A DNA stretch of 62,902 bases, filler included, from Globobulimina sp. (Eukaryota), in assembly GCA_003354225.1 (NCBI GenBank). It is 38 parts of 38 records of this genome, joined end to end, with 100 filler letters (N's around TTAATTAATTAA, not from the genome) between each part and the next. Parts side by side here need not be neighbours in the genome. Positions count along the whole stretch, not along the records: positions 46,433 to 47,989 come from PIVH01014853.1; 37 more parts are not named here. The stretch is one strand, 5' to 3'. Shown piece by piece: positions 3,319 to 47,989 of the stretch. Within the stretch, counting starts at the first letter, position 1, and each line of letters starts with the position of its first letter. Position numbers and translations under genes: made by a program. The notes beneath the pieces were generated by a model. The model ran no database searches, was not told the DNA's origin, and worked only from the letters and a program-made list of their open reading frames with translations.

Positions 3319-4877
3319 GCAGGCTTTGCCCAAACCGAAACCCAACAAAAAGCAGAAAAAGCAAAGCGACAGCAATGTGCATACAGTGTCTCCGAATAAG
3401 CGGTATCAGATTGCGATGCAGCATCAAATGATAAAACACCATCAACGGCATCAACGTACACTGCAGCCAGGCAACAAAAATCCAGCTACGATCACACGGA
3501 ATGATATAAATCTGCACGTTCTCGCACAAAAAAGAAAGAAAAAAAAGAATCGACATATGAGCGAACCATATATTATGTCGCCACCACAGCACAAACATAA
3601 CCATTTCGTGAATGGCGAAATGAAAGAAAATCCATTGTCTGAGTCTTCGCCGGAGATTACAATCACTCCCATTCAATTTATTGATGTTCAAAAGTCCAAA
3701 TCCGGCAATATTATGAATAAACGGTTGCGATCAAAGTCAAACCCCACGCAATTAGTTATATATTATATTTTTTGTTTGTATTCATATCCTCGCACTCGAT
3801 GCAATAAATTCGTTTTGCAGTCATATTCTGAGAAATATAGCAAAATTAATCTGTTTGCAATTTAATTTTTTCATATTTCGTATACAGGCAAAAGAAAACA
3901 AGGATGGATTTGTAATGGATAAATCCGCCAAAAAAAAGAAAAAAAAGCACAAAAAAAGGAAACCCGACGCCAACAAACGCAAATCGTCGACGCCCACTGT
4001 CAACCGCAAAAAACCGCGACGACGCAGAGAAGGCGCCGGCGAACATAATCCGTTTCAAACCGATGTCGCCACAGACGACCACACTCCAAATAAAAATAAA
4101 AATACACTCCACCCGTCCATGTACATAGAAAAAAACAAAAACCCTCGGAAAAGCTATTACGATTCCAATTATTACGCCAAATACGCAAAGCACAGTAAAT
4201 TGGAGGCTCAAAGCTCCGGCCATTCCAATCTGACCAACAGCACTCATTTCACGGCCACCACCATCAGCGAGACGCCGGTGCCACGCGAAGCCAGTTCGAC
4301 GCACAAAAAAACCATCACCATGACGCCCATCAACATCGAGCTGATCAACCAATCGCTAAACACGCAATTCCTGCAACAATCGCCCAACAAAACCACCACC
4401 ATTTCGAGTGCCATGGTGCCGCCGCCGCCCTCACCGCAATTAACCAAGAAAAAGTACAACAACTTATCGCCGTCACCCTCTCCCTCCTTCCGCCTCAACG
4501 ACAATCACCGCAAATCCACGGATAACAGCACCGTGACCGCCACCTTCGACGACGGCGCCTTACCAAACCACGACAGCGACAGTACGTTGTCGCAGGACAC
4601 AGCCAACAGCGGCACGAACAAAATAAATGGCCGAACGCCCACACCGCGGACCGACCGCTCCAACACAGAAACAGTAACGTACAGAAACGCAAAGTATTCG
4701 GTCGGATCACCAGTGCCCATCTCCGATATCGCCTTGTCTGACGATGGCAAAATATTTGAGATTCGCGTGGAAAAAGTAGCGCATATTATAGATGAAGCAA
4801 ACCAGAGCTCTGACACGGAAACGTTGATATCATCGTCGTCGTCATGCAGCTCATCGTCAGACAACAAGCAGATAATT
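3319..4877 (+). CDS. Low-complexity Lys/Ser/Thr/Pro-rich eukaryotic protein (partial); intron 3755-3887
   Basis: A GTTATA...TACAG phase-0 intron joins ORFs 3326 and 3855 in frame. Confidence 0.6.
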
Positions 4878-46332: not shown

Positions 46333-46837
46333 NNNNNNNNNNNNNNNNNNNNNNNNNNNNNNNNNNNNNNNNNNNNTTAATTAATTAANNNNNNNNNNNN
46401 NNNNNNNNNNNNNNNNNNNNNNNNNNNNNNNNCTATTAACAATAGCACCACTACATTGGACATTTTTTTTGGTTGCGTTTCAAAATATCTTCCGGCAGAC
46501 ATCGAGAGAAGGACTAGAAACATAGGTTGTCCTGAGCGTCCGGGTATACGTCATGGGTCAAATCCAACCAATGTTGAATCACGACAAAAATTATTATGGG
46601 GCCGCTGTCAAACGACAAATCGATACATACCCCGGTTTCAAGGAAACGACATTCGGATACAGTTTTAAAGTAAGAAGTTAGGAAAAGAATAGAAACTTTT
46701 AGTAAATTAAACAAATATAATTATTAAAAGGCAGAAAAGTAATAATAGAAGGTCGGTAAATAACGCTCTTATAAATAGAAATAATTTAAATTAACGTATT
46801 TGATAGTTAAAACCAAACATAGACGATAATAGTAGGA

Positions 46838-46929
46838 AAAAATTGAGTTTCGGTCCTTATTTCTTGACCCAATTTTTACCGTATATGATTTATTGGCAGG
46901 ACCATCTTCAGAAGAAACCAATAAATCAT
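46838..46929 (-). ncRNA. Non-circularly permuted hammerhead ribozyme, copy 2; predicted cleavage after the C at 46866
   Basis: Minus strand: ATGATTTATTGG TTTCTT CTGAAGA T GGTCCT G CCAATAAATCAT ATACGGT AAAAATTGGGT C AAGAAA TA AGGACC GAAA CTCAATTTTT. All four helices pair. Confidence 0.9.
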
Positions 46930-47183
46930 TTATAAAGCCATGTACTACCTACCGTACATGAATAATAATATATAGACCACTGAATAAATAAACTAACTGT
47001 TATGCTATCAGTAGCATGTCTTTTACTAGTGGCCAATTCCTTTCTGCTTGGACCAAATCCACGTTGACCACCACGTCCACTCGGACCCCCACGTCCACCA
47101 CGTCCACTCGGACCACCCCGTCCTCTTGAACCACCGCCACCACGGAAATCCGTACCACGATTGCCTCTGCCACCACGAGCCAT
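46926..47183 (-). CDS. RGG/GR-rich ORF start, preceded by a 5' UTR intron (47189-47274); possible donor at 46997
   Basis: MARGGRGNRG...RGGRGGPSGRGG. A GTGAGT...TTTTTAG intron ends 5 nt before the ATG. Confidence 0.6.
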   Translation of the reverse strand: MARGGRGNRGTDFRGGGGSRGRGGPSGRGGRGGPSGRGGQRGFGPSRKELATSKRHATDSITVSLFIQWSIYYYSCTVGSTWLYK

Positions 47184-47467
47184 TGTTCCTAAAAAAACAG
47201 CAAAAGAGGAGCCAGCCAGAAGAGTTCAGAAAAATTAGAAAATTAAACAGATTAAAGTAGACTGAATTACTCACCGCAAGACTTTATTTTCCTGTCATTC
47301 TTTAAGCAACTGGATTTGCATAATAATCATAATTTATGCCAGTGATAACCAAATTTATTTATCAATCCAAGTCCCTAGTCCAAATAATCAGGCCATGCTG
47401 TAAATTCGCCCATGTGGCTGTGTATTCGTATAGGCAGCCAAGACGCCAGATGACGCCAAAGTGAATA

Positions 47468-47746
47468 TTAAACAACTGGTTTGCCCTGTAGAGATACACC
47501 CCAGCTATGTGTATCGGCAACATTTGCTATATGCTTATTTAGCATATAATTAGACTACTGGTTAGGCCATTAAGAGATACATTCCCAGCAAAATGTATCG
47601 GCAATGAAACGGTATCGCTAAAAATAGCGTTAATTAAACAACTGGTTATGCCATTGGTATATACACACCCAGCAATGTGTATTGGCGGTAATTAAACAGC
47701 TGGATGCTATAGGATAAAGTACACCCCCAGCTAGGTGAACCAGCAG
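47468..47746 (-). ncRNA. Four tandem ~54-nt pseudoknot RNA motifs (47692-47746, 47634-47688, 47550-47604, 47468-47520)
   Basis: Each copy: P1, P2 hairpin with loop ending GCTGGG, 7-9 nt bulge, P1', then CCAGY..TYTAA. Compensatory changes between copies. Confidence 0.8.
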
Positions 47747-47774
47747 GTACTGTGTAAAACGGTTAGGTATGTCA

Positions 47775-47989
47775 TTATTTGGTAAAGGTGCAAATAAACT
47801 TTGCAATGTTATTTTTATCCGTTAGACCATATTTAAGTAATTGCATTTTATGCTTTTCATAAAATTTAAATGAGCAAGCGATTAAATCATATCTATTAAA
47901 TCCATTAATAATCAAACTGAGAAAAATTTCTCTATTCCTGGCTATAAGATCATTAAGACGATTGCAAATCCTAAGAAATCGCAGCAACT
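47775..47989 (-). mobile_element. C-terminus (RT thumb) of a Penelope-like retroelement with C-terminal RT (Naiad/Chlamys-like)
   Basis: (Q)LLRFLRICN..D...R....L..NGF....L...FKFY..H...L.KY resembles the PLE thumb consensus (SQLxRYxRxC). The ORF stops with no downstream GIY-YIG domain. Confidence 0.7.

Follow-up and report, generated by a model that had tools for sequence, protein, structure and literature searches.

A type-CSG hammerhead motif downstream of a Naiad-type Penelope-like reverse transcriptase end in a contig from Globobulimina sp.

Does the Naiad clade of Penelope-like retrotransposons (PLEs), which was described without canonical hammerhead ribozymes, carry hammerheads of another architecture? 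The question is raised by positions 46433-47989 of a 62,902-nt stretch of DNA from Globobulimina sp., hereafter the window (1-62902). An initial annotation had listed there, all on the minus strand, the end of a PLE reverse transcriptase (RT), four tandem pseudoknots, two TGGCGTC boxes, an intron, an RGG-rich open reading frame (ORF) and a rearranged hammerhead, and had regarded them as a candidate undescribed RNA module. Sequence signals, repeat families and a descriptor scan recovered each of these features on that strand and in that order, and all feature coordinates within the contig given below refer to the minus strand. The window was put together artificially from 38 contigs, each 1557-1559 nt long, sorted by length and ranging in GC content from 0.28 to 0.49, with separators of N runs and the linker TTAATTAATTAA, which has stops in six frames. 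Positions 46433-47989 are exactly one whole contig of 1557 nt; the adjoining contigs are thus uninformative about it, and its ends are assembly ends. We give a probability of roughly 0.68 to the reading that this contig is a piece of a Naiad-type PLE with tandem units behind its RT ORF, a first exon in its pseudo-long terminal repeat (pseudo-LTR) and an intronic type-CSG hammerhead.

The identity of the element was addressed through the ORF end, which comprises the last 70 codons and the stop (47775..47987), the frame being open from the contig edge to a TAA at 47777-47775 that is followed by a TGA. An exhaustive phmmer search against 1.84 billion representatives gave six matches to this ORF end. 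The top three (P0003-P0005) were repetitive proteins, matched in many stretches, and were set aside; the remaining three were P0006 (118 aa), P0008 (117 aa) and P0007 (854 aa). The match in P0007 covers residues 784-844, its extreme C-terminus (E 4.8e-5), and an RVT_1 match is found in the same protein at 622-713. Among the relatives of P0007 (n=73, 490-1270 aa), all six that were tested contain GIY-YIG in the N-terminal part, and five of the six have RVT_1 further on with E values of 6e-5 to 8e-3, all below the Pfam cut-off. A family profile of 51 members and 927 positions matched 47778-47987 at positions 858-924 (~67 residues, E 3.3e-13), which was its sole match in the window. The alignment of the relatives (A2) shows the Naiad motifs in its consensus, with D-K-A invariant. 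According to the account of the clade, Naiads are marked by an N-terminal endonuclease (EN) that has CCHH plus CX2-5CxxC upstream, by a CxC linker and by a change from DKG to DKA, and Chlamys elements are without both zinc-finger motifs (Craig et al. 2021, PMC8557442). Taken together, the phmmer and profile matches and the Naiad marks of the relatives identify the ORF fragment, by homology, as the C-terminus (RT thumb) of a Naiad-type PLE protein from the clade whose EN is N-terminal and whose RT is C-terminal, so that the Naiad/Chlamys-like assignment of the initial annotation can be narrowed to Naiad-like. Neither the ORF end nor the RGG peptide matched a Pfam family, and a word-indexed comparison with longer proteins left the ORF end without a match. 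A 152-nt contig from the marine-metagenome run X2 is identical to 47742-47889, that is, over 148 nt across the stop codon and into the first tandem unit.

The hammerhead motif (46835..46932) was located with a descriptor scan that allowed any block order on both strands, in which it was the single match in the window, with stems of 7, 6 and 11 bp. Read 5' to 3', it starts with the 5' arm of a bridging helix (46932-46918), followed by the stem I 5' strand UUUCUU (46917-46912), the CUGAAGA box (46911-46905), an extra U (46904), the stem II 5' strand GGUCC(U) (46903-46898), the 3' arm of the bridging helix (46896-46882) and the stem III 5' strand (46880-46867). C17, the non-G nucleotide at the cleavage site, is at 46866 and cleavage is predicted between 46866 and 46865; then come the stem I 3' strand AAGAAA (46865-46860), a UAA linker, the stem II 3' strand GGACC (46856-46852), the GAAA box (46851-46848) and the stem III 3' strand (46847-46835). 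The CUGAnGA box is thus flanked by stem I on its 5' side and stem II on its 3' side (UUUCUU-CUGAAGA-U-GGUCCU at 46917-46898, stems of 7 and 6 bp). Stem II, GGUCCU/AGGACC, joins the CUGAAGA and GAAA blocks, while UUUCUU of stem I pairs with the AAGAAA that follows C46866. In stem III, the 11-14 nt before C46866 pair with the nucleotides after GAAA, including A15.1-U16.1, such that GGACC-GAAA-CUCAAUUUUUU pairs with ...AAAAAUUGGGU-C. All hammerhead core nucleotides and the three adjoining stems are present. The blocks follow the order C-S-G with stems I-III mutually crossing, and this order is not a rotation of types I, II and III (C-G-S).

The motif is real: besides its being the single match in the window, none of 4000 dinucleotide shuffles of the contig produced a match at looser thresholds (5/4/5). 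A 15-bp helix, 46932-46918 with 46896-46882 (93% complementary), connects stems I and II on their free sides, the UAA linker connects them on the other, and a single nucleotide joins the distal bridging helix to distal stem III. The nested fold of the motif consists of two hairpins, the 15-bp bridging helix and the 11-14-bp stem III (z -3.27), and was equalled by none of 200 shuffles. Base-pairing between the large loops of these two hairpins, in stems I and II, would put together a standard hammerhead core, and the C-S-G motif is predicted to cleave after C46866. In run X1, one copy lacks the extra U at 46904 and another has U-A where the contig has a U.G pair in stem III. No Rfam family was matched on the contig at E<=10 or on seven related loci at E<=1, which, with the non-circular order of the blocks, agrees with the expectation that searches for types I, II and III would miss the ribozyme.

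Related elements provided the comparative evidence. Naiad-like loci were recovered by scanning contigs filed under prokaryote metagenome-assembled genomes (MAGs), which gave 38 related loci. The MAGs in question (for L006-L050) are bacterial and archaeal, several being named as invertebrate symbionts (Bathymodiolus, Lucinoma), and these contigs are most likely mis-binned host DNA. One of them, L007, is an independent Naiad contig of 4584 nt with ORF1 and ORF2, and contains a clean C-S-G hammerhead at 4354-4436, on the same strand and 554 nt past the ORF2 stop. It has the same CUGAAGA-U and the same UAA linker, an 11-bp bridging helix and different helix sequences. Between the contig and L007, two-sided changes with pairing kept were found in 5 of 6 pairs of stem I, 2 of 5 of stem II, 5 of 10 of stem III and 6 of 11 of the bridging helix, and a script tabulated 18 compensatory pairs in all. 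A model built from the contig's ribozyme copy alone detected L007 at E 2.8e-6.

In a second locus, L006, a C-S-G variant was observed with stems of 6/6/6 and a 30-nt insert after CUGAUGA. The segment 5008-5108 of L006, which starts within the ribozyme motif, is repeated at the contig start (1-102) with 99% identity, and this direct repeat flanking the element marks it as a pseudo-LTR. A short ORF in L006 (MDSLQ...SSLQ) ends at CAG|GT ~40 nt upstream of the ribozyme, and an acceptor in the element body, ...catAG|, opens the ORF1 frame exactly at 524; from this donor and in-frame acceptor the ribozyme would lie in an intron spanning the boundary between pseudo-LTR and body. L007 has an ATG and four codons followed by |GTAAGC ~45 nt before its ribozyme, so that both loci have a short ATG exon with a donor 40-60 nt before the ribozyme, and the RGG exon of the Globobulimina contig occupies the same position. 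A Penelope-like pseudo-LTR or partial tandem is not visible within one 1557-nt contig; the pseudo-LTR reading of the initial annotation gains instead from the relatives, in which the motif shares the strand of the RT ORF and lies downstream of it and, in L006, inside the flanking direct repeat. L006 and L007 share a homologous ORF1 upstream of the EN-RT ORF (blastp E 6.6e-10). In a further locus, L008, 99%-identical direct repeats (1-91 and 3502-3592) flank the element, as pseudo-LTRs do, and in L010 (1-2637) the ORF runs from RT into a ubiquitin-hydrolase-like C-terminus, PF00443 being carried by P0039; this is a fusion or a host-gene insertion.

Two other loci gave less regular candidates. 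In L029 (2246-2345, plus strand) the S and G blocks are well conserved, including a stem III of 14 bp and AAGGGCC-GAAA, and GUUCAC-CGGAAGA-U is found downstream of them; the latter resembles a C block in which the core is mutated and stem II does not match, and the motif is a decayed or rearranged relative of the ribozyme. L022 (3346-3400, plus strand) has a weak S-G-C candidate with stems of 6/3/4, ~370 nt after the end of a Naiad-like ORF, in which no bridging helix was identified and of which type 0.025 matches are expected by chance per locus set. Strict matches were absent from 40 shuffled sets of the 38 loci. A C-S-G match in L038 (stems 5/5/5, offset 24) was rejected, being antisense inside an ORF and of a kind expected 0.125 times per locus set. 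Patterns derived from the ribozyme gave 0 and 1 match in viral contigs and 4 and then 3 in genome contigs, all attributable to coding sequence or chance except that in the L007 contig. With the family alignment, viral contigs yielded no relatives. When both MAG assemblies from which L006 and L007 come were searched at the DNA level with the L006 ribozyme region, only the L006 contig itself was returned, and the model R2 gave two matches in five further assemblies, both without the hammerhead core.

Between the ORF end and the hammerhead, the features of the contig suggest the following layout. The end of the EN-RT ORF would be followed by a 3' untranslated region (UTR) opening with four tandem units, and then by the pseudo-LTR or 5' region of the element, consisting of a 5'-UTR intron and a short RGG-rich first coding exon that ends at a 5' splice site, with the type-CSG hammerhead ~60 nt inside the second intron. 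The two TGGCGTC boxes are at 47442..47458 (47458-47452 and 47448-47442) and can form a small hairpin, GGCGUC-AUCU-GGCGUC, in the centroid fold. A candidate GT-AG intron of 86 nt (47189..47274) has a GTGAGT donor, a polypyrimidine stretch and an AG, and ends 5 nt before an ATG. This ATG, at 47183, opens the putative RGG-rich first coding exon (46998..47183; 62 codons, phase 0), which includes a tandem 27-nt repeat and ends at a GTTAGT donor (46997-46992) 60 nt before the bridging helix. The intron was called, and the RGG ORF taken as coding, from sequence signals, and the exon, if it belongs to the element, would encode the N-terminus of its upstream ORF. Two run-X2 contigs match the RGG-coding repeat (window 47067-47123) at <90% and are probably unrelated low-complexity sequence. 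Beyond the ribozyme, an 18-nt box occurs twice in direct orientation at window 46610-46661, the copies being 78% alike with a spacing of 34, and close by is a long-range complementarity, CCGGGGUAU...AUACCCGG; folding of 46500-46680 gave no improvement over shuffles (z +0.43).

By analogy with the hammerheads of canonical PLEs, the cut made by the C-S-G ribozyme, after C46866, would fall inside the pseudo-LTR of tandem or read-through transcripts, and an mRNA that starts in the upstream copy of the pseudo-LTR would be freed of the ribozyme by splicing.

The four tandem units begin close to the RT ORF, the first helix of the array starting at 47745, 30 nt after the stop codon, and were defined from repeat families (D2 for the first), an alignment (A1) and pair counts, with folds for the second and third. 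U1 (47687..47748) is divergent, with an outer helix shifted by 2 nt; U2 (47625..47690) is followed by a spacer hairpin at 47629-47616, U3 (47541..47606) by another at 47548-47528, and U4 (47457..47522) completes the series, the start-to-start spacings being 84, 84 and 58 nt. The spacer hairpins in the gaps after U2 and after U3 have unrelated sequences, U1 and U2 abut without one, and a third spacer, again an inverted repeat, is present in another genomic copy (run X1, depth 29). Each unit is predicted to fold into an outer helix (e.g. UUGCC/GGCAA) around a 7-8-bp hairpin (e.g. GAUACAC/GUGUAUC), and CCAGUU, one nucleotide past the 3' side of the outer helix, pairs with the hairpin's loop, AGCUGG, to give a pseudoknot. 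On the four units 88% of the cells are paired, and sliding the partners by 1-3 columns lowers this to 28-42%; two-sided pair changes among the units number 5, as against 0-1 in the slid controls. A variant genomic copy changes a U.U mismatch in the loop-to-tail helix of U2 to U-A (47640), with the G.U at 47699 kept. The covariance model R1 recovered only three of its four source units and, weakly (11.6 bits, E 1.3), a possible relic of a fifth unit, 3' half only, at 47344-47293 (feature 47293..47344, also in repeat families D4 and D12). Run X1 has no contig covering 47473-47524, and runs X3 and X4, which come from the same sample, gave no contig matching the stretch. A strict pattern of the unit had one match in metagenome contigs, inside a bacterial histidine-kinase gene, and this was a chance match. 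The units are thus a real repeat, with comparative support for the pseudoknot fold, and are private to the lineage. In L007, three tandem units of 25-27 nt (3820-3894) directly follow the ORF2 stop, in the same place as the array of the contig and with a different motif; each forms a 5-bp hairpin (CAGGG...CCCUG), and one has U-A for C-G at its base.

Several observations weigh against assigning all of these modules to one Naiad-type element. Run X1 contains 68% of the sampled words of the stretch, with several unitig variants over the RT end and the array, and its unitigs, which differ in depth, break between the modules, leaving the joins to the assembly by itself; no listed X1 piece spans the whole stretch, so that the order of the modules depends on the assembly and on the analogy with L006 and L007. 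In a very fragmented assembly, such a pattern could mean that the contig is a chimera of unrelated repeats (a PLE end, a tandem array and a ribozyme-bearing repeat) and the co-occurrence an artefact. We consider this quite improbable, because one X1 unitig spans 46663-47462 and joins the boxes, the intron, the RGG exon and the ribozyme, because the independent metagenome contig joins the stop codon to the start of U1, and because the same module order is found in two independent assemblies, those of L006 and L007. An unlikely explanation, if somewhat less so, is that the RGG exon and introns belong to a host gene, upstream of which a 5'-truncated Naiad copy (RT end and 3' UTR) was inserted, and that the hammerhead is a separate dispersed repeat in the gene's intron, for instance a non-autonomous element resembling a retrozyme or a short interspersed nuclear element. 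The summed X1 depth is 38 over the ribozyme and 8.5 in its flanks; the motif is multi-copy, and other copies match only 46838..46918/46930, diverging exactly at its own limits, so that the ribozyme module also occurs in other contexts. N-termini rich in RGG are common in host RNA-binding proteins, and no EN, ORF1 or other PLE coding sequence was detected in the 1340 nt after the stop, nor was a counterpart of the ORF1 of L006 and L007 found in the contig; the RGG exon and the ribozyme are assigned to the same element by analogy with these two loci. A 2026 preprint also reports, in the part concerned, that animal retrozymes are non-autonomous derivatives of PLEs. What speaks against a host gene is that L006 and L007 have the same order on one strand, namely the end of the RT ORF, a few hundred nucleotides, a short ATG phase-0 exon and a C-S-G hammerhead, and that the exon of L006 is predicted to splice in frame to the element's own ORF1, with the ribozyme in the flanking direct repeat. 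Of 18 distinct loci with >=500 nt past the ORF, one has the clean C-S-G motif (L007), one the variant (L006), one the degenerate form (L029), one the weak S-G-C candidate (L022) and 14 have nothing, so that a link between ribozyme and Naiads holds for a sub-lineage at most; P0006-P0008, the nearest protein relatives of the ORF end, were compared as proteins. What speaks against activity of the ribozyme is the extra U between CUGAAGA and stem II; it recurs in L007 and, as mentioned, is missing from one X1 copy.

For the tandem units, the assignment of a function is the weakest step in reading the contig as a Naiad-type PLE, in which the pseudoknot array would most likely be a lineage-specific 3'-UTR element for recognition by the RT or for RNA stability. 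The units could also be plain satellite-like repeats of the 3' UTR with no role at the RNA level, their pseudoknot being a by-product of short internal palindromes, and we take this alternative seriously while leaning against it. The pair counts were made on the very four paralogous units from which the structure had been deduced, and four paralogous units can beat a shuffle control without any structure. The nested folding energies of the units were no better than those of shuffles (z -0.2 to -0.6; whole array z -0.92), Rfam gave no match to the units at E<=10, and R1 matched none of the 38 related loci. Of the two RNA motifs whose co-occurrence the initial annotation proposed to check, the ribozyme was found in L007 and as a variant in L006, and the pseudoknot unit in neither. 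The different array at the same place in L007 likewise allows that the shared theme is only one of repeats after the stop. These points are countered by the five two-sided changes and the excess of paired cells over the slid controls, by the repair of a mismatch of the loop-to-tail helix in another genomic copy, and by the pairing kept in the spacer hairpins despite their unrelated sequences.

Naiads are among the most abundant PLEs in invertebrates, and some of them contain unexplained halves of a hammerhead core. We tentatively propose, as an idea with somewhat less than an even chance of holding in full, that non-circularly permuted hammerheads (type CSG and perhaps SGC, its circular relative) have long been overlooked as the ribozymes of at least one sub-lineage of Naiads and are located in the pseudo-LTR intron after the first coding exon, that the two CSG ribozymes known from metagenomes and the half-cores of 2021 are the same thing, and that the ribozyme is joined here to a private 3'-UTR array of ring-forming pseudoknots protecting the RNA or marking it for a telomerase-related RT. 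If Naiads do carry type-CSG ribozymes, the association between ribozymes and PLEs would reach the clade with N-terminal EN, the rare CSG permutation would acquire a natural setting, with far more sequences on which covariation and structure could be studied, and surveys of retroelement ribozymes would need descriptors for all six block orders. The intronic position beside the first exon would also offer a testable link between splicing and self-cleavage.

How the two RNA motifs relate to known systems can be considered in turn. In the exoribonuclease-resistant RNAs (xrRNAs) of plant viruses, P1 encloses P2, and the apical loop of P2 pairs just 3' of P1; the xrRNAs of flaviviruses also occur in tandem. 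The tandem units of the contig are likewise in a 3' UTR, and their predicted order of helices fits the plant-virus fold. In the published class xrRNA-D, for which P1, P2 and the pseudoknot are named and the part of the paper concerned does not state their order, the L1 and L2B sequences are near-invariant (Steckelberg et al. mBio 2018, PMC6299227). The units are likened to it by predicted helix order, and no Rfam match was found at E<=10; the resemblance is one of predicted fold and not of membership.

Canonical PLE hammerheads are of type I. Lunse et al. in 2017 reportedly described PLE hammerheads, by the title of their work, as minimal variants that cleave as dimers, and Cervera and de la Pena in 2014 are likewise said to have dealt with them. 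Like these, the motif of the contig has its core in a pseudo-LTR, by the reading favoured here, in sense orientation and near the start of the element's coding region; it differs in being non-circularly permuted, in its long stem III and in its putative place in an intron after the first exon. In canonical PLEs, tandem or pseudo-LTR read-through RNAs are formed and the role of the hammerheads in the pseudo-LTR is unsettled; in an anole element, cleavage needed protein and was not required for insertion in vitro, and ribozyme and ORF start overlap (Frangieh et al. 2024, PMC11167929).

The closest match in architecture is type CSG. Non-circular permutations of the hammerhead, including C-S-G, were published in 2023 by Eckert, Friedrich, Weinberg and Weinberg (NAR, PMC10085705), who defined the blocks C, S and G and showed natural type-SGC ribozymes. 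As given there, type CSG consists of two similar sequences, exclusively from metagenomes, both of which cleave at the expected site (48-49 + 29 nt); the passages on them mention no genomic context, and the evidence for the type and its biological relevance is rated as weaker because of modest covariation. The motif of the contig shares with type CSG the order of C (CUGAnGA), S and G, all conserved core nucleotides, a helix between stems I and II, which is described for type SGC as well, and a comparable size (52 + 28-31 nt from stem I), and with type SGC a linker of ~3 nt between stems I and II and a near-direct join of the bridging helix to distal stem III. It differs from the published pair in being eukaryotic, multi-copy and downstream of a Naiad RT ORF, and in the extra U after CUGAAGA, although insertions of 1-2 nt between CUGAnGA and stem II occur according to the same paper; it is placed in the class by its architecture. 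The interpretation given in the initial annotation thus holds in part: the Naiad ORF end, the permuted ribozyme and, in relatives, the pseudo-LTR are supported, while "undescribed" does not apply to a permutation that was already in print. The ribozyme class is known, and the Naiad context appears to be new, a full-text literature search having found no link between non-circular hammerhead permutations and PLEs.

With Naiads the contig shares the C-terminal RT, and its relatives have the N-terminal GIY-YIG, CCHH, CX2-5CxxC, CxC and DKA as well as pseudo-LTRs. In the account of the clade, pseudo-LTRs are present and canonical hammerheads are stated to be lacking, as the initial annotation had also held (Craig, Yushenova, Rodriguez & Arkhipova, MBE 2021, PMC8557442). 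The cases labelled there 'HHR_core' and 'HHR_half_core' have cuganga and gaaa 35-50 nt apart and fit no descriptor, and the relevant part of that paper, which predates the 2023 description, does not read them as permuted ribozymes. In the Globobulimina contig the same two elements are 53 nt apart, and in L007 46 nt, and in both they form part of a complete C-S-G ribozyme.

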